Source of the DNA: Dehalococcoidia bacterium
GTDB lineage: Bacteria > Chloroflexota > Dehalococcoidia > UBA6926
Assembly: GCA_963666115.2 (NCBI GenBank)
Contig: CAXXET010000006.1
Coordinates: 320,001 to 384,000 of the forward strand
DNA: 64,000 nt
Direction of reading: 5' to 3'
Part shown: piece after piece, positions 9,497 to 26,231 of the stretch
How the letters are laid out: the number at the start of each line of letters is the position of its first letter
Position numbering within the stretch: position 1 is the stretch's first letter
Notes under the pieces: model-generated
The model's database searches: none
The model's input: the letters and a program-made list of their open reading frames with translations, nothing else
Told to the model about the DNA's origin: nothing
Translations under genes and position numbers: made by a program

Positions 9497-10366
9497 ATGC
9501 CTGATGGGGAGAGCGTCGCGACATACCGAGCATTGAGCCTGGGTGCCGGAGTCCAAAGCTCGGTGCTTGCTTTGTTACTATCGCGCGGCGACCAGCGGCT
9601 TGTCGATGCAGGCTATCCGAAACCAGATTTGGCGGTGTTTGCTGATACCGGGTGGGAACCGGACTACGTCTATGAGCATCTGGACTGGTTGGAAACGCAG
9701 CTTGATTTTGAACTCATCCGGGTGAGCGACGGCAATCTCAGGGAGAATTTGAGGCGTGCCAAGACGGTAACCGGGCATGACTTTGTCGACGTTCCGATGT
9801 TCGTGACGAATCCCGATGGCGGGGCAGGTATTCTCCGTCGCCAATGCACGAATCACTACAAGATCCGGCCGATCCATCGGGCAGTGAGGGAACGGGCTGG
9901 AGGAAAGCGCGGACGCCCGTTCCCGAAAAACACCCACGCCGAGATGTGGCTTGGAATCTCAACGGATGAGATTGTGCGAATGAAGCCGAGCCGTGAACCA
10001 TGGACGGTGCATCGATGGCCGCTAATCGACATCGGTATGTCGCGCCAGGACTGCCTCGACTGGTTTGAGAGTGAATACCCTGACCGGCATCTGCCCAGGT
10101 CGGCCTGTGTCATCTGCCCCTATCGCTCTGACGCCCATTGGCAGGAGATGCGCGAGTACGAGCCCGAGAGCTTTGACGAGGCGGTCGCATTTGACAGGTG
10201 GCTGCGAAAGTCGTCAAAGAACCCGGTGCGGCAAGTGCTTGCGGGTCGCCCGTATCTGCATAGGACGCGCAGACCCCTTGGTAGCGCAGTTGAGGGTCTT
10301 GCGAGCGGCACACTTGTTGATGATGGGCTGTTTGAGGATGAATGTGAAGGTCACTGTGGCGTCTGA
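9497..10366 (+). CDS. PAPS-reductase-like / PP-loop adenine nucleotide alpha-hydrolase family protein with Cys motifs
   Basis: SLGAGVQS PP-loop variant, FADTGWE, RQCT, SACVICPY, C-terminal CEGHCGV. Confidence 0.75.
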   Translation: MPDGESVATYRALSLGAGVQSSVLALLLSRGDQRLVDAGYPKPDLAVFADTGWEPDYVYEHLDWLETQLDFELIRVSDGNLRENLRRAKTVTGHDFVDVPMFVTNPDGGAGILRRQCTNHYKIRPIHRAVRERAGGKRGRPFPKNTHAEMWLGISTDEIVRMKPSREPWTVHRWPLIDIGMSRQDCLDWFESEYPDRHLPRSACVICPYRSDAHWQEMREYEPESFDEAVAFDRWLRKSSKNPVRQVLAGRPYLHRTRRPLGSAVEGLASGTLVDDGLFEDECEGHCGV

Positions 10367-11591
10367 AAGTTCTACTATCCAGGCCCTTTATGGCCTTCAT
10401 CCTTATCAGCGCCAAGTTTTGGGCGATATAGTCGCGGCGCTTGCAGAGCCCGAGGGCCGGGTTGTTGCTCACCTACCTACTGGTGCTGGCAAGACCAGAA
10501 TTGCTAGCCACGTTGCGGGGCACATGCTCAACAGCAGTTCTGGAGATAGTGCCCTAGTTATCTGGCTTGCGTCCACCGAGGAACTATGTGACCAGGCCGC
10601 TGAAACACTCGAACGCGCCTGGCAGCATGTGGGCCAGAGAAACGTAACAATGAATCGGTTTTGGGGTGGACATCGAATCGATTTGCGACAGATTGAAGGT
10701 GGCTTTCTGGTTGCCGGGCTGGCGAAACTCTGGGCAGTTGCCAGCCAGGACAATACCTGGAGTCCTCATCTCGCACAAAGAACTGCGGGAGTGATCTTTG
10801 ATGAGGCTCACCAGGCAGTGGCGAGAACCTATTCATATTTGACGGAACAACTCATTGGATCAAGGACCCCGTTGCTTGGACTGACCGCAACTCCTGGCCG
10901 TAAAGCGTCCTTGAGTGATGAGGATTATGCCTTAGCGGAGATGTTTGCTCACAAGAAAGTGTCGATCGATCCCAAAGGGCACGTTAGCCCGGTTACGTAC
11001 CTGATTGCGAACGGATACCTTGCCGACCCTCGCTTTGTCACGAGGGCATTCACCGGCCAGCAGCGCGATTCACTTCGAACGAATAACGGCGATTATGCTC
11101 AGGAACTGCTCGACGAATTGGGGAGGGATCGAGAGCGCAACCAGAATATTGTAGATTGGACAGCAGACGCAGCGACTAGGCACAAGCGGATCATTGTATT
11201 CTGTCCTTCGGTCGAAAGTGTCCAGCAATGTGGGCAGCAGTTGGAGTTAAGGGGCCTCCAAGCAAACGGGATTACAGCAACGACTCCCCAAGATGTCCGC
11301 TCTGAGATTATTCGCAAATATCGCGAGACCTCGTCCACCCCCAGGATAATCTTGAATTATGGTGTCCTCACTGCGGGCTTCGACGCGCCACAGACTTCAT
11401 GCGCAATCATTGCGCGCCCGACTCAATCGCTGGTACTATATTCTCAGATGGTAGGTCGTGCGCTGCGGGGTCCGCGCGTTGGGGGAAATAGGTGGGCCGA
11501 AATACTCACCGTTGTCGACATGGACTTACCGGGGTTCGACTCTGTTACTGACGCATTTAGGAATTGGGAGGAGCTATGGCAGGAGAACTGA
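10356..11591 (+). CDS. SF2 DEAH-box (ResIII-like) helicase
   Basis: PTGAGKT, DEAH, GLTATP, QMVGRALR; GTG start inferred overlapping the upstream stop. Confidence 0.9.
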   Translation: MASESSTIQALYGLHPYQRQVLGDIVAALAEPEGRVVAHLPTGAGKTRIASHVAGHMLNSSSGDSALVIWLASTEELCDQAAETLERAWQHVGQRNVTMNRFWGGHRIDLRQIEGGFLVAGLAKLWAVASQDNTWSPHLAQRTAGVIFDEAHQAVARTYSYLTEQLIGSRTPLLGLTATPGRKASLSDEDYALAEMFAHKKVSIDPKGHVSPVTYLIANGYLADPRFVTRAFTGQQRDSLRTNNGDYAQELLDELGRDRERNQNIVDWTADAATRHKRIIVFCPSVESVQQCGQQLELRGLQANGITATTPQDVRSEIIRKYRETSSTPRIILNYGVLTAGFDAPQTSCAIIARPTQSLVLYSQMVGRALRGPRVGGNRWAEILTVVDMDLPGFDSVTDAFRNWEELWQEN

Positions 11592-13456
11592 CGCCTGACG
11601 AGAGGGAAGAATTCTCGATCCTTACTCCAGAAAGGCTTGTGGAGGCCCTGCGGGATACCAGATACAACAGCACCGCACATGCTATCGCTGAACTTGTCGA
11701 TAATTCTATCGAGGCCAATGCGCGAGAGATTAGCCTGCTTTGCGCAGAGGAATACGAGATGGTTGTCGAGCGAAGCAAGCGAAGAGTATCCGAGATAGCT
11801 GTCCTCGATAACGGTGATGGAATGGACCCGGAGACGTTAGCGCAGTCATTGATTTTCGGCGGAGGAACCAAGCACGATAGCCTGCGTGGGATGGGGAAAT
11901 ATGGAATGGGCCTGCCGACAGCATCGCTATCGCAATGCACGAAAGTCGAGATATGGAGTTGGCAGTCAGGTTACGAGAGCGCCTGGCATTCGTGGATTAA
12001 CGTCAAGGAGATAATGGCTGGCCGCCAAACTATTCCGATGCCAGACCAGGAGAAGATTCCGGATCGCTGGCTGCGCGCGGCAAGTACGGATATGTTCGAG
12101 AACCTGCCACTTTCGCACCAAAAATCGGGCACTCTGGTCGTATGGTCAGATCTTGACAAGATGCAGTGGAAAACGAGCAGCGCAATCCTGAGGAATACTG
12201 CGGAGGAGGTCGGACGGATCCATCGGCACTTTATCGCGTCAGGACGTTGCCGCATTCAGACTGTCAGCTTCTCTGCGACCAATCCAGACGACAAGCAAGC
12301 GGACATTGTCGTCCCTAACGACCCTACTTATTTGATGCCGACTACATCCACGCCCACGCCTTGGGGCGAAACTCCAATGTTTAGAGAGTGGACGAGAAAG
12401 CACTACGGCATTGAAGCGGGTGGCAGAGAAAACACAATTGATGTCGTGTACTCGATAGTCAAACCAGAAGCATTGCAAACCGACAGGGTTAGTATACAGC
12501 CGGGCAGACAGCCACACGGTGCACATGCTAGGAAGAACATAGGAGTGTCCGTGGTTCGGGAAGAACGTGAGATTATTCTCGACAAGTCATTCATGAGTGA
12601 GGGCGGCAGTTCTCGCGACCCGCGGCAGCGGTGGTGGGGTTGTGAAGTTAGGTTCGGGCGTGACGCCGACGAGTTTTTCGGGATAGACACCAAAAAGCAG
12701 GCCGTCTGGAAATTCACTAAGGCTGCTCAAGAGCTCGCCAGTGATGATAGACCAATAGCAGTTGTTCTTGATGAAATGGGTGTGGAGAGAGACCCGATTT
12801 ATGAATTGGTTTTCGAAATCAAGAATGAAATTGGAAACCTGATGCGGGAAATCAATAAGATGTTCGGCCAGCGAACGGGCGAATCGACTGAAGACAGGAA
12901 GCACAGCCCAGAGACGAAGGCTGCCGGCAGCATGTCAGAAGCCATAAAGGACGCAATCGAGGCCGGAGAAGAAAAGGAGACGCAGACAGACGAAGACCGG
13001 CGGACAATTCCTCCTGACGAGAGAGAAGAGGCGATCGCACTGGAACTAGAAGAATCGGGGCGGCCTCCCGAGAGAGCCAAAGAGCTTGCAATGGGACTGG
13101 TGCAACAGGAGCAAGGTTTTGTCTTTGATGTTGGACAAGTTTCAGGATACTCCATTTTTGACGTGCGTTCCAGCAAAGGCATATTGCACCTGACTCTGAA
13201 TATGGATCACCCAGTTTACGACTACTTGAACGTTATCGAACAAGATATCCGTGAAAACGCCGACGAGAACAGCCCCGAATTCAAGGCGGCTGTGGCAATT
13301 CGCCTACTATTGCTATGTTGGGCACGCATGGAAGACCAGGCTGCTACTCGCGAGGAGCGGATGCAGATACAGGATATTGCGGCGAAGTGGGGACGTCACG
13401 TTGACCGGGCGGTGAGGCACGCTAGCTCGGAGGACCCGGAGATGCCGACTGGATGA
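11576..13456 (+). CDS. MORC-like GHKL ATPase
   Basis: AIAELVDNSIEA, DNGDGM, GKYGMGL, SGTLVVW GHKL motifs; long C-terminal region. Confidence 0.85.
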   Translation: MAGELTPDEREEFSILTPERLVEALRDTRYNSTAHAIAELVDNSIEANAREISLLCAEEYEMVVERSKRRVSEIAVLDNGDGMDPETLAQSLIFGGGTKHDSLRGMGKYGMGLPTASLSQCTKVEIWSWQSGYESAWHSWINVKEIMAGRQTIPMPDQEKIPDRWLRAASTDMFENLPLSHQKSGTLVVWSDLDKMQWKTSSAILRNTAEEVGRIHRHFIASGRCRIQTVSFSATNPDDKQADIVVPNDPTYLMPTTSTPTPWGETPMFREWTRKHYGIEAGGRENTIDVVYSIVKPEALQTDRVSIQPGRQPHGAHARKNIGVSVVREEREIILDKSFMSEGGSSRDPRQRWWGCEVRFGRDADEFFGIDTKKQAVWKFTKAAQELASDDRPIAVVLDEMGVERDPIYELVFEIKNEIGNLMREINKMFGQRTGESTEDRKHSPETKAAGSMSEAIKDAIEAGEEKETQTDEDRRTIPPDEREEAIALELEESGRPPERAKELAMGLVQQEQGFVFDVGQVSGYSIFDVRSSKGILHLTLNMDHPVYDYLNVIEQDIRENADENSPEFKAAVAIRLLLLCWARMEDQAATREERMQIQDIAAKWGRHVDRAVRHASSEDPEMPTG

Positions 13457-14304
13457 TTGTCTCAGAAAGTACCGGCTTCAGTGTTCCTCCTCAGAATGCC
13501 GTCTTTATTGCCGCTCCATACATAAGGGCTGCCGCTCTGACTCGGTTCCTTGCGAATGTGCCCTCTGTGCCAGAGTTGACCTGTGTTACTCGCTGGCAAC
13601 CTAAGGATCTGGCGCTTGGTGTATCAGAGGTGGAGTGTCGACGGATCATCCTTAACAGGGGAGGCCATTTCCTGCTGCACCCAACGTTGCACGCCAAGTA
13701 TTATCGATTTGATGATGAGATTCTGATTGGCTCGGCCAATTTGACGATGTCGGGTATGGGCTGGTCATGGAGATCGAATCTGGAGATACTGGCACCGCCC
13801 TCAGACGCATTTGACTACCTAGCATTCGAGTCGGAACTCTTAGCGAGAGCCAGACCGATTTCCGACGTCGAATTCGAGCAATGGGCGTCTATCCAAGATC
13901 TCGGAACAGAGGCTGTGGGTTCGACGCCACAGTTCGCTCAAGCACCTGATTGGCGACCGGTTACTCGCGAATTTGAGAATTTCTCCAGAGCCTACTACGG
14001 CCGGTTACGCGAGATACCTTCAATTGATGAGGCGCGACGGGCCCAAAGCGATATTGTGACTTTGCAGTTGCCGCCCAACCAAGTGCCTGAATCACTGCGC
14101 AGACTGGTGACTACAGCCCTCTTGGCGTCTCCCTACGCGTCGGATGTCCTGCGCGTTCAGCATATGGACGCGGTGGATGCTGCTCGTGAGTTGGCTACGT
14201 TGTATGACCTGCCGTTACACTTGGCGCGGCGCGACATGGAAACCGTCCATAATTGGCTGAGAGAATTAGCCCCGGAACTGCTACCATCATCGGAGGATCA
14301 GTAG
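13453..14304 (+). CDS. Phospholipase D-family nuclease (single HKD motif)
   Basis: LHAKYYRFD..IGSANLT; ATGA overlap with the MORC gene stop. Confidence 0.8.
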   Translation: MIVSESTGFSVPPQNAVFIAAPYIRAAALTRFLANVPSVPELTCVTRWQPKDLALGVSEVECRRIILNRGGHFLLHPTLHAKYYRFDDEILIGSANLTMSGMGWSWRSNLEILAPPSDAFDYLAFESELLARARPISDVEFEQWASIQDLGTEAVGSTPQFAQAPDWRPVTREFENFSRAYYGRLREIPSIDEARRAQSDIVTLQLPPNQVPESLRRLVTTALLASPYASDVLRVQHMDAVDAARELATLYDLPLHLARRDMETVHNWLRELAPELLPSSEDQ

Positions 14305-14808: not shown

Positions 14809-16449
14809 ATGGAACTACACGAGGCCCTCTGGGAGCTTGGCCTGCTGATTGTGCTCGCCAAGCTCCTCGAGGGCGTCTTCAAGCGATTCGGCCTGAACGC
14901 CATCATCGCCTATGCCACGGCCGGGATCATCCTTGGCCCCGTGCTTGGAATCGTCCATCCGGGCGGCGGCATGGAGGTCATTCTCGGCATCGGCATCTTC
15001 GTCTTCTTCTTCCTCGTCGGCATCGAGGAACTGGACATCAAGGGCTTCATCGCCGCCGCCCGCGGCCGCCTCTTCTTCGCGGCTGCGTTCTCGGTGGCGC
15101 TCTCCCTCCTCATATCCCTCGCGGTCACCAGCGATGTGCTGTTCGATCTTGGGCTGGGGCTCAACCTGGACGAGGCGCTCGCGCTCGCCGGCATCCTCTC
15201 TCTTTCCAGCCTGGGACTGGTCGCCAAGGTTCTTGTCGATGAGGGACGGCTCAAGGAGCCTGCGGGCATCCAGATATTCACCGCCGTGGTCATCGCCGAG
15301 CTGCTCGTGCTGTTCGTCGTGGGATTCGCCATCAGCGAGCACTTCTTTGCGGGCGAGGGCGATGCGGCCATGGACCCCGTCCACGCCCTGGTGGTCATCG
15401 GGCAGATCTTCATATTCGCCGCCCTCACGTGGCTGTTCTCCACGAGGGTTCTACCGTGGATCATCGTGGGCCTGCAGCGATTCCTGCGCGTGCCGCAGTT
15501 GTCCTTCGGCGTGCTGCTGGGCGGGCTCTTCCTCGTGGTTGTCGGCGCGGAGCAGGTCGGATTGCACGGCTCTCTGGGCGCGCTGCTCTTCGGCGCGGCG
15601 CTCTCCATGCTGCCGTACCAGGTGCGGCGGGACATCATGCCCGGCGTCCGGAGTTCCGCAGAGGGATTCTTCGTTCCGCTGTTCTTTGCCTCCGCCGGTC
15701 TGCACGTCAGCCTGGCCTTCCTCGATCTGCCGGCGACGACCGTTGCCGTGCTGATCCTCGTCCCGCTGGCAGGAAAATTCGCCGGCGCGTTCATCAGCAC
15801 TTTCGTCGCGCGGCTCGAAGCCCCGTTCGCCATCTCCGCCGGGCTCATGGCCAAGGGGGTCGCGGAGATTGCGCTGCTGCTGGTGATGTTCCAGGTCGGC
15901 TCCATCGACGAAGCCGTGTTCTCCCTCCTCGTGATCCTCATGTTTGCGTACATGCTCCTCTCCCCGTTCGGCATCAGCTTCGCGCTCAGGAGAGTCAAGG
16001 AACCGGTCGATCACATGGACGCGCTGCACCTGCCGCCCTCGATGGTTCCCTTCGCGCTGGAGGGCATCAGGGTGGGGGACATCCTCGATCGGTCACGCGC
16101 CTACGCTGACCATTCGTCGAGCATCCAGTCATTTGCCGAATACTGGCTCCTGCCGGAACAGCAGGACTACGTGGTTGTCGATAAAGGGGAGTTGGCCGGA
16201 ATCGTCTCGCTTGGCATGCTGCGCTACGTTCCCCGCGGCGAGTGGGACGACACGCCGCTGAGCCGCGTGCTGCGCGAGCACACGCCGCATGCCCATGACA
16301 ACGAACTGATCGAGGATGCCCTACAGCGGATGATCGACCACTCCCTGACGGTGATTCCCGTCAGGGATGAAGATACGAGCCGTTTCATCGGCTCGATCAC
16401 CATCAGCGAGGTTATGGAGTTGATCACGGTCACCGCGCGGGGCCACTAG
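14809..16449 (+). CDS. Cation:proton antiporter with C-terminal CBS pair
   Basis: Many TM helices, GIILGP, FFVPLFF, KGVAE; CBS-like tail. Confidence 0.85.
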   Translation: MELHEALWELGLLIVLAKLLEGVFKRFGLNAIIAYATAGIILGPVLGIVHPGGGMEVILGIGIFVFFFLVGIEELDIKGFIAAARGRLFFAAAFSVALSLLISLAVTSDVLFDLGLGLNLDEALALAGILSLSSLGLVAKVLVDEGRLKEPAGIQIFTAVVIAELLVLFVVGFAISEHFFAGEGDAAMDPVHALVVIGQIFIFAALTWLFSTRVLPWIIVGLQRFLRVPQLSFGVLLGGLFLVVVGAEQVGLHGSLGALLFGAALSMLPYQVRRDIMPGVRSSAEGFFVPLFFASAGLHVSLAFLDLPATTVAVLILVPLAGKFAGAFISTFVARLEAPFAISAGLMAKGVAEIALLLVMFQVGSIDEAVFSLLVILMFAYMLLSPFGISFALRRVKEPVDHMDALHLPPSMVPFALEGIRVGDILDRSRAYADHSSSIQSFAEYWLLPEQQDYVVVDKGELAGIVSLGMLRYVPRGEWDDTPLSRVLREHTPHAHDNELIEDALQRMIDHSLTVIPVRDEDTSRFIGSITISEVMELITVTARGH

Positions 16450-16593
16450 GCCCGGATACTCCCGCGCAGCGCGTGTCCTTACTTAAAGAGAGAAACACGT
16501 CAACGAATCCGTATACATGGTTGCCGCCATGCGCGCGCGGTGCTACCGTGTAGCCATGCGAGCAGGGCAGTGGTTGGCCCACGAGGTGGACGT

Positions 16594-17751
16594 ATGAGCC
16601 TTCGCGGTGAAGCGGCGATCATCGGAATCGGCGAGTTGCCCACGACCCGCGCCACTTTTGGCCGCTCCATGGTCGGCCTCATGGGCGACGTGGCCCGCAT
16701 CGCCATCCATGACGCGCACGTGCGCTTCGACGATATTGACGGGCTTGTGACGGAGGGCGGGAATGTGTCTCCGGCCTTCGCGTCCGAGTACCTTGGCATC
16801 CAGCCGCGGTTCGCTTCCGGCGCGAGCATGATGGGCGCAAGCGGCGCGACGGGCGTCACTCTCGCCTCCATGGCCGTGCAGAACGGCCTCGCCAATTATG
16901 TGCTCGTCGTCATTGCTACTGCGCGCAACCCCGCCATCCCGCCGGAGGGCGGCGGGCCTCCCAGCGCGCGGTCGGAGTTTGAGGACCCGTACGGCATGGC
17001 CGCCGGCGCCAACACGGGTTACGGCATGATGTACGTCAGGCACATGGAAGAATACGGCACCACCGAAGAGCAGATGGCGCAGATGGCCGTCAACGAGCGG
17101 TTCAACACGCTGGAGAATCCAAACTCCGTCTTCAAGGGGCAGCCCATCACGCATGACGACGTGATGAATTCCCGCTTTATCAACTATCCCATCAAGCTGC
17201 TTGAAACCGTGATGCCGTGCGCCGGCGCGGCGGCTGTCGTGGTGACGAGCGCGGAGCGCGCCAGGCACAGCCTGAACCGGCCTGTCTACGTGCTCGGCGC
17301 AGGCGTGGCGACCGATCCGCTCATGGGCTGGATGCGCGACAAGCTGACCGAGACGCCCGTTGCGCGGTCTGCCCCCACCGCGATCACGATGTCCGGCTAC
17401 ACGCCGCGCGACATGCAGTTCGCCCAATTCTACGATTGATACACCATCCTCCATGCCGTGAGCCTGGAAGATGCGGGACTGATGCCCAAGGGCGAGGTTG
17501 GGGCCTTCTTTGAATCGACGGACACCCGCTACAACGGCGAGTTCCCCATCAACACGGACGGCGGCCAGCTCTCCAGCGGCCAGCCGGGTCTCGCCGGCGG
17601 ATTCCGCCACGTCGTTGAGGGCGCGCGCCAGATCATGGGCAAGGCGGGCGTCCGGCAGATTGCCCGCAATGACCTCGGTCTGGTGAATGGTTGAGGCGGC
17701 ACCGCGAGCACCATGTGCACGCTGGTTCTCGGGTCCGAGAACGCACTCTAG
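16594..17751 (+). CDS. Thiolase-like protein (SCP-x/Ltp2 type) with two in-frame TGA codons (17437, 17692); putative selenoprotein, 385 aa if read through
   Basis: Frame continues through both TGAs to TAG at 17749-17751; colinear with and the same length (1158 nt) as paralog 18356-19513. Confidence 0.8.
17445..17473 (+). promoter_or_regulatory. Putative bacterial SECIS hairpin after UGA 17437
   Basis: CATCCTCCA pairs with TGGAAGATG (one mismatch); inner GC/GC pairs close loop CGUGA 17 nt after the UGA. Confidence 0.55.
17701..17726 (+). promoter_or_regulatory. Putative SECIS-like hairpin after UGA 17692
   Basis: ACC/GGT, GCG/CGC and GCAC/GTGC stems; loop 17 nt after the UGA; loop lacks the canonical G. 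Confidence 0.4.
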
Positions 17752-17795
17752 GGATACAGAAAGAGCACAGCCGCAGAGCCGCCGGAGATGCTGCC

Positions 17796-18314
17796 ATGAC
17801 GAGCGAATACAGGAGACCCGTCCCGCGCCCCACGATGAACCCGGAGTTGACCGCGCCGTTCTGGGCAGGGACGAAACGCCATGAACTCTGGCTCCAGAAC
17901 TGCAAGCCCTGCGGCAAGTTCATCTTCTACCCGCGCGAGGCCTGCCCCGAGTGCTGGGCTCACGGCGATGACCTGGTGTGGACGAAGGCGAGCGGCACGG
18001 GCCGCGTCCACTCCTACACCGTCGTCTATCAGCCCGCCCACCCGGCCTTCGGCGAGTTCATGCCCCAGGCGCAGGTTCTCATCGAGCTGGATGAGGGCGT
18101 GCGAATGGTCGGGAACATGGTGGACGTCTCGTCGGAGGAGTTCCGCGCGGACCCCGCCGTGCTCCCGGTCAACCAGCGCGTCGAGGCGGTCTTTGAAGAC
18201 GTGACGCCCGAGTGGACGCTTATCAAGTGGCGGCGCGTTGAGGAGGACCCCGTGCCGGGGTCCGATACGGCACCTACCGAGAACCCGTGGGCGAACGATC
18301 CCAGGTATAACTGA
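17796..18314 (+). CDS. DUF35 Zn-ribbon/OB-fold acyl-CoA-binding protein
   Basis: PFW..LWLQxCxxCG..YPRxxCPxC..SGxGxVxSYTV..IELDEG. Confidence 0.92.
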   Translation: MTSEYRRPVPRPTMNPELTAPFWAGTKRHELWLQNCKPCGKFIFYPREACPECWAHGDDLVWTKASGTGRVHSYTVVYQPAHPAFGEFMPQAQVLIELDEGVRMVGNMVDVSSEEFRADPAVLPVNQRVEAVFEDVTPEWTLIKWRRVEEDPVPGSDTAPTENPWANDPRYN

Positions 18315-18355
18315 TCCCGTTAGTGAGGCGTGGCGCAGAGCAGGAGGACAGAGAC

Positions 18356-19513
18356 GTGAGTTTCCGGGGAAAGGCCGCAATCATCGGTATCGGCGAACTC
18401 CCGTCGCGCCGGACGATTCCCGGCATGAGCACGGCCGGCCTGCTGGCGCAGGCGGCGCGTCTCGCCATCGAGGACGCGCACATCTCCAAGGATGAGGTCG
18501 ACGGGCTGGTTACGGAGGGAGGCTCGGTCTTCCCGGGATTCGCGGCGGAATACCTTGGCATCCGCCCCCGATTCGGCACCGGCGTTTCCATGATGGGGGC
18601 GAGCGGCGCGACCGCCGTCCTGCTTGCCGCGATGGCCGTCCAGAACGGCCTCGCAAGCAACGTCCTCGTCGTCATGGGGCAGGCGCGCAACCCTGCAATC
18701 GCCGCCGAGGGCGAGGGGGGCGCGAACCCAGCGACGGAGTTCGATTTCCCGTATGGGCCCGCCGCCGGCGCGAATTCCGGCTACGCACAGGTCTACAAGC
18801 GCCACATGGACCGGTACGGCACCACGCAGGAACAGATGGCGCGCGTGGCGGTAAATGAACGCGCCAACGCGCAGGGCAACGAGAATGCCGTGTTCAACGG
18901 CCAGCCGATCACCTATGACGACGTCATCGGCTCGCGGTACGTGAATTATCCGCTGCGGCTGCTGGAGTGCGTGATGCCGTGCGCGGGCGCGGCGGCGCTC
19001 ATCGTCACGACCGCCGAGAGGGCGAAGGCCGGGTTGAACAGGCCCGCGTACATGCTTGGCGGGGGGACAGCGGTGGACGGCCTCAGCGGGATGATGCGGC
19101 CGGAGCTGACCGTCACGCCGGTTGCCCGCTCTGCCCCAACCGCGTTCGCCATGTCCGGCTACGCCCCGAAAGACGTGCAGTTCGCCCAATTCTATGACGC
19201 TTACACCATCATCCACGCCGTGAGCCTGGAGGACGCGGGAATCGTGCCGAAGGGCGAGATCGGGCCGTTCTTTGCGGAGACCGACACCACCTACAACGGC
19301 ACGTTCCCGATCAATACGGACGGCGGCCAGTTGTCCGGCGGGCAGCCGGGTTCGGCAGGCGGCCTCCGCCACGTCGTTGAGGCGGCCCGTCAGATCATGG
19401 GCAAGGCGGGCGTGAGGCAGATCGAGCGGAACGACCTGGGCCTCGTGAATGGCAACGGCGGGATGTCGAGCGTCATGTGCACGCTGGTTCTCGGGTCCGC
19501 GAACGCACTCTAG
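18356..19513 (+). CDS. Thiolase-like protein, uninterrupted paralog
   Basis: AAIIGIGE, GAAALIVT, YDAYT, PINTDGGQLS; GTG start after AGGAGG. Confidence 0.93.
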   Translation: MSFRGKAAIIGIGELPSRRTIPGMSTAGLLAQAARLAIEDAHISKDEVDGLVTEGGSVFPGFAAEYLGIRPRFGTGVSMMGASGATAVLLAAMAVQNGLASNVLVVMGQARNPAIAAEGEGGANPATEFDFPYGPAAGANSGYAQVYKRHMDRYGTTQEQMARVAVNERANAQGNENAVFNGQPITYDDVIGSRYVNYPLRLLECVMPCAGAAALIVTTAERAKAGLNRPAYMLGGGTAVDGLSGMMRPELTVTPVARSAPTAFAMSGYAPKDVQFAQFYDAYTIIHAVSLEDAGIVPKGEIGPFFAETDTTYNGTFPINTDGGQLSGGQPGSAGGLRHVVEAARQIMGKAGVRQIERNDLGLVNGNGGMSSVMCTLVLGSANAL

Positions 19514-19522
19514 GAGGCAGGC

Positions 19523-19987
19523 ATGACAAGCGAATACACCAAGCCGCTGCCGCACGCCACGCTGAACCCGGAGGTGTCGCGGCCGTTCTGGGAGGGCACG
19601 AAGAAGCACGAGTTGTGGGTGCAGTACTGCGGCGCGTGCAATAAGTTCGTCTTCTTCCCGCGCGAAGTGTGCCCGTACGGCCTGTGCGCCATCGACAAGC
19701 TCGTCTGGACGAAGACCAGGGGCAAGGGCCGCGTCTACTCCTACACGACCGTCTACCAGTCCTCGTTCCCGGCGTTCACAGAGGAAGCCCCCTACATCCA
19801 CGCCACCATCCAGTTGGACGAGGGCCCGCGCATGTCGGGAAACGTCCTCGTGCCGAAGGAGCAACTAGCGGAAGACCCGAGCGCGCTGGCCGTCGGCCAG
19901 CGCGTCGAGGCCGTGTACGACGACGTGACGGATGACGTCACCCTCGTAAAGTGGCAGCCCATCCCGGAAGATGAGCCGCCAGATTAA
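19523..19987 (+). CDS. DUF35 Zn-ribbon/OB-fold protein
   Basis: Same motifs as 17796-18314; AGGAGG RBS. Confidence 0.92.
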   Translation: MTSEYTKPLPHATLNPEVSRPFWEGTKKHELWVQYCGACNKFVFFPREVCPYGLCAIDKLVWTKTRGKGRVYSYTTVYQSSFPAFTEEAPYIHATIQLDEGPRMSGNVLVPKEQLAEDPSALAVGQRVEAVYDDVTDDVTLVKWQPIPEDEPPD

Positions 19988-24367: not shown

Positions 24368-25585
24368 GTGCCGGTGACCAACAGAGCGACGGACCTACAG
24401 CGGGCTGAGAGCGCCGATTCGTCGGCGCAGCCTGGCCCAATCGAGAATCAGCTTCATCTGCCCAGCCTGTACATATCAGGATTCAGGGGTATTGGGGAGT
24501 TGAACCTGCCGAGGCTTGCCCAGGTGACGCTGTTCGTTGGCGACAACGGCGTTGGGAAATCGACGATTTTGGACGCCGTTAGGCTGTACGCGGGGAGGGG
24601 CAACCTGAATGCGATAGCCCAGCTTTTGGATTCAAGGGAGGAGTACTCTCAGGCATGGGAAAATGGGGAACTGGTGGACAATCTCTGGTGGCCCGCATTG
24701 TTTCGCAAAATGCCGAGGGACACTGACCAGCGACTTGAAATAGGGCCTGCGCCAGAGGCTGATGGTGGTGGCGGACTTGTCATTGAGACCGTAACCCTTG
24801 ATGAAGACTCTGCGGAAGTCAGGCAGAGACGAGGTGTAGGCGGTGGGATAGCATCCGGGTCTTTCTTCAAGGTGGTCGTTCGCTTTAACGGTGAGGAGTG
24901 GCGCCTCTACGACTATAATCTTCAGAATGCGAAACCCTCCCCGAATTCGTCCCCGGAGGCGGAGATTGCAGTGGCCATGGAGCGACGGGAAGAGATTCCG
25001 GGGACGATATGCGAATCAGTTGGACCGGGATTGCCGGACAATGACGACCTGGGCCGCAAGTGGGACGAGATTGCCCTGACGTCATTTGAGGACGACGTCG
25101 TCGAAATCTTGCGCCCAATTGTTGGGCCTGATCTTGAACGAGTGGGAGTTGTCGGGAAACCCCTGGGGCCTCTGCACAAGCCAGATCGGCAGGTCGTCGC
25201 GCGACTTCGGGGTGACCGAAACAGGATGCCACTCAAGAGCCTCGGCGATGGTGCGCTGCGCTTCTTTGACATGGCCGTGACTCTCGCAAACAGCGCCGAC
25301 GGCTACCTGCTTATCGATGAGGTTGAAAACGGCATCCACTACTCCCACTTCGAAGAACTCTGGCGAATGATTCTTGAGGCTGCTGTTGAGCGCAACATCC
25401 AGGTTCTTGCCACGACCCACAGTTTCGATTGCGTAGCGGGATTTGCCCGTGCTGCCAACTCGCTCCCCGGTGACAACGGCATGCTGATTCGCCTGGACAA
25501 GGGCGATGACGGCGAAATCAAGACCGCTCAGTACTCAGAGGATCTTTTGTCGGTTGCCGACGAGATGGGGATAGAGGTTCGTTAG
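24368..25585 (+). CDS. AAA/ABC-like ATPase (AAA_15/AAA_21 type)
   Basis: GDNGVGKST, SLGDG, LIDEVENGIH, TTHS; start uncertain. Confidence 0.88.
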   Translation: MPVTNRATDLQRAESADSSAQPGPIENQLHLPSLYISGFRGIGELNLPRLAQVTLFVGDNGVGKSTILDAVRLYAGRGNLNAIAQLLDSREEYSQAWENGELVDNLWWPALFRKMPRDTDQRLEIGPAPEADGGGGLVIETVTLDEDSAEVRQRRGVGGGIASGSFFKVVVRFNGEEWRLYDYNLQNAKPSPNSSPEAEIAVAMERREEIPGTICESVGPGLPDNDDLGRKWDEIALTSFEDDVVEILRPIVGPDLERVGVVGKPLGPLHKPDRQVVARLRGDRNRMPLKSLGDGALRFFDMAVTLANSADGYLLIDEVENGIHYSHFEELWRMILEAAVERNIQVLATTHSFDCVAGFARAANSLPGDNGMLIRLDKGDDGEIKTAQYSEDLLSVADEMGIEVR

Positions 25586-25589
25586 GTAA

Positions 25590-26231
25590 ATGACCTCACC
25601 GTCCCGTCTAGGCCGGGCTACAGATCCGGCGAAGTTGCTTCTGGTTGAAGGAAGCGATGATTTACAGGTAGTGCGTCGGCTAGCACGTGAGAACATCCCC
25701 GAGCTACAGTTTGAGATATGGCAGCGACAGGGAATCGACAACCTTCTAAAGGCGATACCGCTACAGTACTTGCGTCAGGGTACAACGGCTCTTGGGATTC
25801 TTGTTGATGCTGACGACAACCTGCAATTTCGATGGAACGATGTTGCTGACAGTTTGAGGCAGGTACGAGTGGACTTACCTACTGAACCGGACCCGGCCGG
25901 AACTGTTCTTGAAGGAGCACCGCGAGTAGGTGTTTGGGTTATGCCGGACAATCGCTCCAGCGGTCAGCTTGAGGACTTCATTCACAAGATGATTCCTGAA
26001 TCCGATCCGGTCTGGCCTCGCTCCGAGGCGTATATTGATGGGATACCAGGACGTGACCGCAAGTTCGGCCGAACCAAGGTCCTGCGTGCAAAGGTAGGTG
26101 CTTGGCTCGCGGCTCGTGAGCGCCCACGTCCGGTGTGGATCGGTATCGAGCAGGGCGACCTTCAACTTGAAGAGAATAGCAGGGCCTTCCTGGATTGGCT
26201 CCAGCGGCTATTTGGTGACGTTCTGCCCTAG
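25590..26231 (+). CDS. DUF3226-like TOPRIM-fold protein
   Basis: LLVEGSDD, GILVDADD, GVWVMPDN..GQLEDF. Confidence 0.75.
   Translation: MTSPSRLGRATDPAKLLLVEGSDDLQVVRRLARENIPELQFEIWQRQGIDNLLKAIPLQYLRQGTTALGILVDADDNLQFRWNDVADSLRQVRVDLPTEPDPAGTVLEGAPRVGVWVMPDNRSSGQLEDFIHKMIPESDPVWPRSEAYIDGIPGRDRKFGRTKVLRAKVGAWLAARERPRPVWIGIEQGDLQLEENSRAFLDWLQRLFGDVLP

Follow-up and report, generated by a model that had tools for sequence, protein, structure and literature searches.

The question raised by this locus is whether a gene with two in-frame stop codons can encode an enzyme that carries two selenocysteine (Sec) residues. The gene, here called gene A, lies at positions 16594 to 17751 of a 64,000-nucleotide stretch (the window, G000:C6:320001-384000) from the genome of a Dehalococcoidia bacterium (G000, 2.07 Mb in 9 contigs), and a paralog, here called paralog B, stands close to it. 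A preliminary description of the window, made from the letters alone, had labelled gene A thiolase-like and proposed that both in-frame UGA codons encode Sec; as checks it had named conservation of the TGAs in orthologs, constraint after each TGA and the presence of a Sec machinery in the genome. Our analysis showed that gene A is a real, intact gene, and the sequence evidence suggested that both UGAs very probably encode Sec. The overall explanation, to which we give a probability of about 0.8, is that gene A encodes a double-Sec protein of an aldolase branch of the thiolase superfamily, similar to the bile-acid retro-aldolase CtSal (Sal-like), and that its UGAs are recoded with SelB and selenocysteine insertion sequence (SECIS) hairpins.

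Translation bore out the description of one intact frame. It runs from ATG 16594 to TAG 17749-17751 over 1158 nt without a frameshift, and two TGA codons are its only in-frame stops. The first (TGA1, codon 282, 17437-17439) stands in the context FAQFYD-TGA-YTILHAV, and the second (TGA2, codon 367, 17692-17694) in the context LGLVNG-TGA-GGTASTMCTLVLGSENAL, that is, LGLVNG-stop-GGTAS. Both the open reading frame (ORF) listing and a codon-usage gene finder split the gene, with pieces of 281 and 78 codons. The two TGAs differ at all three bases from the corresponding codons of paralog B, GCT (Ala) and AAC (Asn), as had been described. The equal length claimed for the two paralogs holds for the aligned span of B (GTG 18356-19513, 1158 nt), but the longest listed ORF of B starts at 18323 and has 1191 nt. 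In the complete Sec-containing genes of the family that were examined, the stop was TAG or TAA without exception, even though TGA is the most frequent stop in the long frames of the genome.

Orthologs were searched in 41 genomes, namely G000 and 40 relatives, including 21 other genomes of the genus. A-type orthologs with two TGAs, at 89-99% identity, were found in G000 and in 20 of the 21 congeners, and for the remaining congener (G001, 90% complete, 230 contigs) no A-type ortholog was listed. The TGA pair occupied identical codons in 20 of 20 loci compared (G000 and 19 congeners), and also in locus L060. The named records found by a pattern search were all Dehalococcoidia metagenome-assembled genomes (MAGs), and 18 of these more distant loci (59-82% identity) were read: 12 had TGA at both sites (U,U), and 6 had Cys at site 1 and TGA at site 2 (C,U). 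The lowest identity among the distant U,U loci was 59%, and their genomes measured 2.7-3.7 Mb. In an even, class-wide sample of 301 Dehalococcoidia genomes, G000 included, 68 had a family match at E<=1e-80; by a count of the listed rows, at least one TGA-bearing match was present in 41, and 27 had TGA-free matches only. In the same count, matches with two TGAs occurred in 29 of the 301 genomes, 18 in the window's family and 11 in other families, these 11 being scored by stop count and not by codon position. Since the TGA pair is found at the same codons in congeners and in more distant Dehalococcoidia loci, chance or sequencing error can be excluded.

We also determined the ratio of nonsynonymous to synonymous polymorphism (pN/pS) in 20 A sequences. 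It was 0.088 upstream of TGA1, 0.054 in the segment between the two TGAs and 0.112 downstream of TGA2, and these low values beyond each TGA exclude decay behind the first stop. Hence both of the checks that concern orthologs came out in favor of Sec: the two sites were kept in 20 of 21 congeners and 12 of 18 distant loci, and the sequence after each TGA was under purifying selection.

The Sec machinery, the remaining check, was found complete. A tRNA-Sec was present (68 bits, cut-off 47; ARAGORN call SeC(tca)), and among 47 tRNAs it was the sole UGA-reading one (anticodon tca), tRNA-Trp having the anticodon cca. The genes selA, selB and selD scored 539, 330 and 387 bits, each above the curated cut-off. 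SelD is itself a selenoprotein, with one TGA in CAGUAAK (L018:1441-2520, + strand, on G000:C6 outside the window). A homolog of O6-methylguanine-DNA methyltransferase (MGMT), which is among the catalogued selenoprotein families (PMC13188914), has TGA at the active-site Cys, in VVPUHRV (L117:9985-10587, - strand, corresponding to G000:C4:249410-250012). This Sec-type MGMT homolog lies about 2 kb from a further paralog of gene A, paralog C. In 1497 stop-to-stop frames of at least 300 codons, TGA was used as stop 659 times, TAG 588 times and TAA 250 times; as TGA is the commonest stop, a general reassignment of TGA was rejected. A crude genome-wide screen for in-frame TGAs, based on codon-usage likelihood, gave 8 candidates, but it missed selD and took in likely adjacent genes, and it was dropped as an estimate of the selenoproteome.

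The pattern of residues at the two sites was examined in a family alignment of the best 150 representatives of 7259 matches. Site 1 was occupied by Cys in 64 of them (the query placeholder excluded), by Ser in 22, Ala in 22 and Asp in 14, and site 2 was variable, with Asn in 26, Thr in 16, Val in 12, and Ser and others. Eight database proteins stop exactly at the TGA codons, ending in FYD (P0010, P0030, P0034, P0041) or in VNG/VNT (P0003, P0007, P0008, P0015); they have been cut by gene callers at the same codons. In a quick IQ-TREE tree of 93 rows (L075 left out for length; the label of L070 being a regular-expression artefact), all site-2 Sec genes fell into one clade, and site 1 alternated between Cys and Sec at least 4 times, for example between L096 (C) and L097 (U) at branch lengths below 0.02. 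In close relatives, site 1 changed only between TGA and Cys codons. Machinery, TGA conservation, purifying selection and Cys at site 1 all supported the original inference that both UGAs are Sec codons.

At the RNA level, synonymous diversity was measured over the 13 codons after each TGA, and 373 such codon windows were ranked in gene A. Among 21 gene A sequences the diversity was 0.140 after TGA1 and 0.123 after TGA2, compared with 0.335 gene-wide, and these values ranked 22nd and 14th lowest of 373. Similarly, the Sec-containing form of paralog B (13 sequences) showed 0.116 and 0.064 after the TGAs and 0.358 gene-wide, and in the 6 B copies without TGAs that were fetched the site-1 dip was gone (0.379 vs 0.263). 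A candidate SECIS hairpin was located after each TGA. RNAalifold retained the core of the site-1 stem, with one compensatory pair changed from C-G to G-C, and the same swap was seen in distant U,U genes. A site-2 hairpin was found in every paralog type, with a loop of 3-5 nt about 19-24 nt from the UGA, and its stems differed between paralogs, with compensating changes (GCGAGCA/UGCACGC, GAGCGAC/GUCGCUC, UGAGCA/UGCUCA and CGGCGAGCG/UGCUCGCUG). Tested in 42 unique homologous sequences, the site-2 hairpin was more stable than expected from synonymous-codon resampling (mean z -2.21; p<=0.05 in 24 of 42 and p<=0.2 in 37 of 42). The stem registers are shifted by 1-2 nt between paralogs, and because of this no single RNAalifold structure or covariance model was obtained for site 2. 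Plain RNAfold energies gave no separation of Sec from non-Sec sequences. We propose that both UGAs would be recoded via the bacterial SelB/SECIS route, with the hairpins lying in the coding sequence just 3' of each UGA.

As for the protein itself, Pfam matched gene A with Thiolase_C_1 only (PF22691), 18 NCBIfam thiolase and lipid-transfer models all remained under their cut-offs, and no NCBIfam selenoprotein model matched. The best solved relative by sequence was 9myr_A (E 3.9e-76), followed by 4u4e, 7yvy and 6ok1. The AlphaFold model of gene A (predicted local distance difference test, pLDDT, 94; predicted template modeling score, pTM, 0.94) also had 9myr_A as its best fold match (template modeling score, TM, 0.92/0.90), followed by 4u4e and the Ltp2 aldolase 6ok1. 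9MYR is CtSal, described as the Comamonas testosteroni retro-aldolase of the bile-acid C5 side chain, which acts on 22-hydroxy bile-acid coenzyme A (CoA) esters (PMC12329534). According to the account given there, Tyr302 acts as base and Cys304 as acid, the variants C304A, C304S and C304H have no activity, the oxyanion hole is formed by the Gly391 amide and Gln161, Gln347 and Gln352 flank Cys304, and Gly stands in place of the thiolase nucleophile (PMC12329534). In a gap-free alignment to CtSal, Tyr280 of gene A corresponded to Tyr302, Sec282 to Cys304, Gln325 to Gln347, Gln330 to Gln352, Sec367 to Thr389 and Gly369 to Gly391.

Profiles were then compared with the classical thiolase of the same genome (G000:C7:214755-215939) and 17 others. 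In these comparisons, hhalign (probability 99%) paired G81 with the Cys of CxS, YDUY with NEAF, and GQP with GHP. The N-terminal nucleophilic Cys had been described as absent, and indeed Gly81, in MMGASG, aligned with Cys89 of the classical thiolase; in the family alignment, 129 of the 137 rows filled at this column have Gly. With Gly in place of the nucleophilic Cys, the gene A protein is not a thiolase, and the His of GHP is Gln330 in gene A. Thiolysis by the classical mechanism is excluded because the CxS nucleophile and the His are both absent. The label thiolase-like is thus right for the fold, but the enzyme appears to be aldolase-like, of the Sal type, and no true thiolase. Site 1 had been equated with the Cys of the HDCF loop and the His of YDHF in Ltp2, and this was confirmed by the alignments (YDCY; hhalign 99%).

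Site 2 was mapped on the AlphaFold models. The last hairpin of the classical thiolase comprises a strand (374-381), a turn (382-384) and a second strand (385-393), and Cys380 of CxG is residue 7 of the first strand. In gene A the last hairpin comprises a strand (361-368), a turn (369-372) and a second strand (373-380), and Sec367 is again residue 7; the extra length sits in the linker after the preceding helix. Since the strand register is the same and an oxyanion-hole Gly follows two residues on, we take U367, with moderate confidence, as the CxG equivalent. In the Zoogloea thiolase, Gly380 of CxG has such an oxyanion-hole role. By homology, the two Sec would lie in one active site.

Compared with known systems, gene A was closest to CtSal-Shy(DUF35). 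Besides the best sequence and fold match (about 37% identity by Foldseek), the two share Gly at the nucleophile position, the Y-D-C/U-Y motif, the equivalents of Gln347 and Gln352, a Gly-Gly loop with the oxyanion-hole Gly, and a DUF35 partner, which for gene A is assigned from gene adjacency. They differ in that gene A has Sec at Cys304, a second Sec at Thr389 and Ala at Gln161, and in that its DUF35 protein is free-standing, whereas in CtSal DUF35 is the tail of a MaoC hydratase. The steroid aldolase Ltp2-ChsH2(DUF35) (6OK1) is likewise a thiolase-fold enzyme that lacks the nucleophile, pairs with DUF35 and has the Tyr base of Y-D-x-F/Y, but it carries His at site 1 and Tyr344 as acid, where gene A has Sec282 and Gln330. 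The SCP2-thiolase-like protein of Trypanosoma brucei (TbSLP, 5AB4-7) and the SCP2-thiolases share the fold and carry the HDCF/YDCF Cys at site 1. However, SCP2-thiolases keep the nucleophilic Cys and the His, none of them has Sec, and none a chalcogen residue at both HDCF and CxG.

Within the thiolase superfamily, the gene A protein can be placed in the Sal/SLP branch, which lacks the nucleophile and is associated with DUF35. Together with the adjoining DUF35 protein, it would most likely cleave a C-C bond of a 3-hydroxyacyl-CoA in a reaction of the retro-aldol type. If it works like CtSal, Tyr280 would take the proton of the beta-hydroxyl, the Gly369 amide would hold the enolate, and Sec282, in place of the essential Cys304, would give a proton to the alpha-carbon. 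We rate the chance that gene A follows this Sal-like mechanism at about even. Sec367 would stand in the same catalytic loop, where classical thiolases have the acid/base residue of CxG; it might provide a second selenol/selenolate, either to relay protons or to take part in a diselenide. That the Sec pair forms a catalytic selenol/selenolate or a reversible diselenide, with a chemistry that no Cys homolog has, is a tentative suggestion. The actual insertion of selenium, the aldolase chemistry, the role of each Sec, the substrate and the binding of DUF35 are what we infer from these comparisons.

Several other explanations were weighed. Gene callers fragment gene A and paralog B could cover a lost function, as would suit a pseudogene in decay, three ORFs from one split gene, or an error in assembly or sequencing. 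This was rejected on the conserved TGAs and the continuing purifying selection, and its probability is close to nil: the TGA pair occurs in independent assemblies of 20 congeners and in distant Dehalococcoidia, pN/pS is 0.05-0.11 after the TGAs, and the frame has no frameshift and no further stops. One public sequencing run accounted for 0.55 of the sampled words and others for small shares, and among the differences listed for contigs from other runs, none fell at TGA1 or TGA2 where these were covered. It is also very improbable that the UGAs are read as Cys, Trp or another amino acid. Such decoding would fit a site-1 hairpin that is statistically unremarkable, but the only UGA-decoding tRNA found is tRNA-Sec, the set of selA, selB and selD is complete, SelD and MGMT have UGA where Sec is canonical, no stop is used more often than TGA, and in close relatives TGA and Cys codons are the sole alternatives at site 1.

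With both UGAs encoding Sec, the chemistry could still be other than Sal-like. One Sec might act as a covalent nucleophile through an acyl-selenoester, in place of the lost N-terminal Cys, in a reaction of the thiolase or acyltransferase type, or the pair might form a diselenide redox centre or switch. We consider this unlikely, even though two chalcogen residues exceed the need of CtSal, the site-2 Sec is new to a family without a Cys precedent there, the oxyanion Gln161 is not retained and the majority of catalogued selenoproteins have redox activity. The subfamily as a whole, and with it the proven aldolase CtSal, is without a nucleophile, the Tyr-Asp-Cys/Sec motif and the two Gln are retained, hydratase genes stand beside paralogs C and E, and no redox partner genes adjoin gene A.

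A number of observations weigh against the double-Sec, Sal-like explanation. The site-1 hairpin was unexceptional against a synonymous-codon null (mean z -0.69, 1 of 32 at p<=0.05), also when two mismatches were allowed (mean z -0.82, 3 of 30 at p<=0.05). At site 2, the low diversity persisted in the B copies without TGAs (0.115), so the dip there is not wholly SECIS-related, and Cys was found in 1 of the 150 representatives (P0027), which is odd for a Sec position. The oxyanion residue Gln161 of CtSal aligned with Ala in gene A. In addition, hhalign placed the classical CxG Cys380, with low confidence, on G362, five residues upstream of U367; its default local alignment ends at residue 353, and in a gapless offset scan the G362 register came first and the U367 register second, both with negative scores. 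The by-eye assignment of site 2 to the CxG Cys is backed by the strand register of the two AlphaFold models and by the oxyanion-hole Gly two residues on, and profile alignment leaves it ambiguous. The sole RNA evidence was one contig from a metatranscriptomic library, derived from a relative, that spans 17616-17781 across TGA2, which is weak and no proof of transcription. The neighborhoods of gene A in G000 and three other genomes gave no clue to pathway or substrate.

Selenium has been reported in a thiolase before, as the Clostridium kluyveri enzyme reportedly contains it, in the form of non-specific selenomethionine and not of UGA-encoded Sec. A 2026 catalogue comprises 119 prokaryotic selenoprotein families and subfamilies, and its Table 1 has no thiolase-fold, SCP2 or DUF35 entry, although its supplements might list such genes (PMC13188914). 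At the level of that table, this agrees with the preliminary description, in which thiolase-fold proteins were said to lie outside the known selenoprotein families. Most catalogued families are characterized there as redox proteins with UxxC or CxxU, and a few have 2-3 Sec (PMC13188914). Redox enzymes make up nearly all selenoproteins known to date. Gene A resembles catalogued selenoproteins in its putative UGA recoding with in-gene hairpins, in the Sec/Cys interchange at site 1 and, for some of them, in having multiple Sec, but its Sec pair is 85 residues apart and its closest relative performs acid/base C-C cleavage. The BSepDB paper describes two Dehalococcoidia MAGs with 46-49 selenoprotein genes, its account of them including no thiolase (PMC13326102); deep-Sep (PMC12013277) makes no mention of thiolase-type terms; and PMC5109826 names other selenoproteins. 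SelA and SelB are described as enriched in sponge symbiont bins (PMC5649159). A literature search for a Sec thiolase or aldolase, including SAR202 and acetyl-CoA acetyltransferase, found nothing relevant, though supplements or the BSepDB website might list such genes.

The features of the locus are collected in Table 1.

Table 1 Gene A, its putative recoding elements and the adjoining genes (window coordinates)
Feature	Position	Strand	Evidence
Shine-Dalgarno-like GAGGTG, 5 nt upstream of ATG	16583..16588	+	Sequence; putative function
Gene A, 385-codon thiolase-fold, Sal-like protein with putative Sec282 and Sec367	16594..17751	+	Stop TAG 17749-17751; PF22691; 9myr_A E 3.9e-76; pLDDT 94; 9myr_A TM 0.92
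Codon 81, Gly, position of the thiolase nucleophilic Cys	16834..16836	+	Gly in 129/137 filled rows; G81 aligned to Cys89 of the genome's classical thiolase
Motif Y280-D281-U282-Y283, matching Y302-D-C304-Y of CtSal and NEAF/HDCF of thiolases	17431..17442	+	TGA1 at 17437-17439; hhalign probability 99%
Candidate SECIS 1 hairpin after TGA1	17445..17473	+	Apical loop CGUGA 17457-17461; one compensatory pair; synonymous-diversity dip; energy unexceptional
TGA2, putative Sec367, next-to-last residue of the penultimate beta strand, before G368-G369 (nearly invariant)	17692..17694	+	
Candidate SECIS 2 hairpin after TGA2	17702..17724	+	Apical loop around 17711-17715; mean z -2.21; synonymous-diversity minimum
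DUF35 partner gene (C4 zinc ribbon and OB fold), 45 nt after gene A	17796..18314	+	PF12172, PF01796; pairing also in L104, paralogs C and E
Paralog B, 70% identical to A; Ala/Asn at sites 1/2 here	18356..19513	+	Sec/Sec in 13 congeners
Second DUF35 gene, partner of B	19523..19987	+	

Four Sec-encoding paralog types were found in the genus, three of them in G000. In 13 congeners, paralog B has both of the TGAs seen in gene A, and in 7 genomes, G000 among them, it has neither. The Ala/Asn form of B makes up one clade of 7 on a long stem branch and is still under purifying selection (pN/pS 0.124 vs 0.064 in Sec/Sec B); perhaps it serves as a partner subunit that is itself non-catalytic. In paralogs C (G000:C4:246426-247580) and D (G000:C6:411157-412311), site 1 is Cys and site 2 is TGA, and paralog E, with Ser at site 1 and Thr at site 2 (YDSF, HGTGG), is Sec-free. 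The E locus (L119:6505-9286, - strand, corresponding to G000:C6:533559-536340) contains a DUF35 gene and two MaoC/hot-dog hydratase genes, a layout that resembles, by analogy, the ChsH1-ChsH2-Ltp2 hydratase-aldolase systems. Near paralog C there are a DUF35 gene, two major facilitator superfamily (MFS) transporter genes and a crotonase gene. Paralog D (VNT-U-RGY; L118:1560-6707, on G000:C6) has no adjoining DUF35 gene; on its downstream side are a DDE transposase and a 606-aa ORF.

Upstream of gene A we found a glyoxalase-fold gene and a Na+/H+ antiporter gene, and on the downstream side tRNA-Ala and a small ORF for a membrane protein. Of the genes beside the double-Sec gene, the DUF35 gene was the only one conserved in three distant genomes. 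Neither redox partner genes adjoining gene A nor steroid-pathway genes near it were found. Gene A and paralog C each adjoin a gene for a CPA2-type Na+/H+ exchanger that carries a CBS or TrkA-N domain (window 14809-16449 and L117:8256-9977), which may be a coincidence or a trace of segmental duplication.

Elsewhere in the window, a two-gene candidate defence system was observed at 24368-26231, in a stretch of lower GC content (GC 0.57); its AAA ATPase matches PADLOC PDC-M38A (E 1e-66) and the neighboring gene matches PDC-M38B (E 5e-32). A low-GC island at 10065-14304 (0.53-0.55 vs about 0.64) holds a ResIII/DEAD helicase, a GHKL ATPase weakly like MzaB and a phospholipase D (PLD)-like protein weakly like DrmC, and looks like an acquired defence island.

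If the two Sec do form such a catalytic selenol/selenolate or diselenide pair, gene A would encode the first selenoenzyme that uses Sec in C-C cleavage or formation on CoA thioesters instead of in redox reactions, and such Sec-pair enzymes would occur in 3-4 paralogs per genome and be widespread in marine and sponge-associated Dehalococcoidia. A Sec at the proven catalytic-acid position of a C-C lyase, together with a second Sec in the neighboring catalytic loop, at a position without Cys in relatives, would point to a non-redox or otherwise unconventional use of selenium. The Cys/Sec, Sec/Sec and Ala/Asn forms, the last still under selection, would provide natural controls for Sec versus Cys in acid/base catalysis. 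The family is common, with TGA-bearing members in 41 of the 301 sampled Dehalococcoidia genomes, and because databases truncate it at the TGAs, both the size of the selenoproteome and the acyl-CoA metabolism of these abundant uncultured bacteria are under-annotated.

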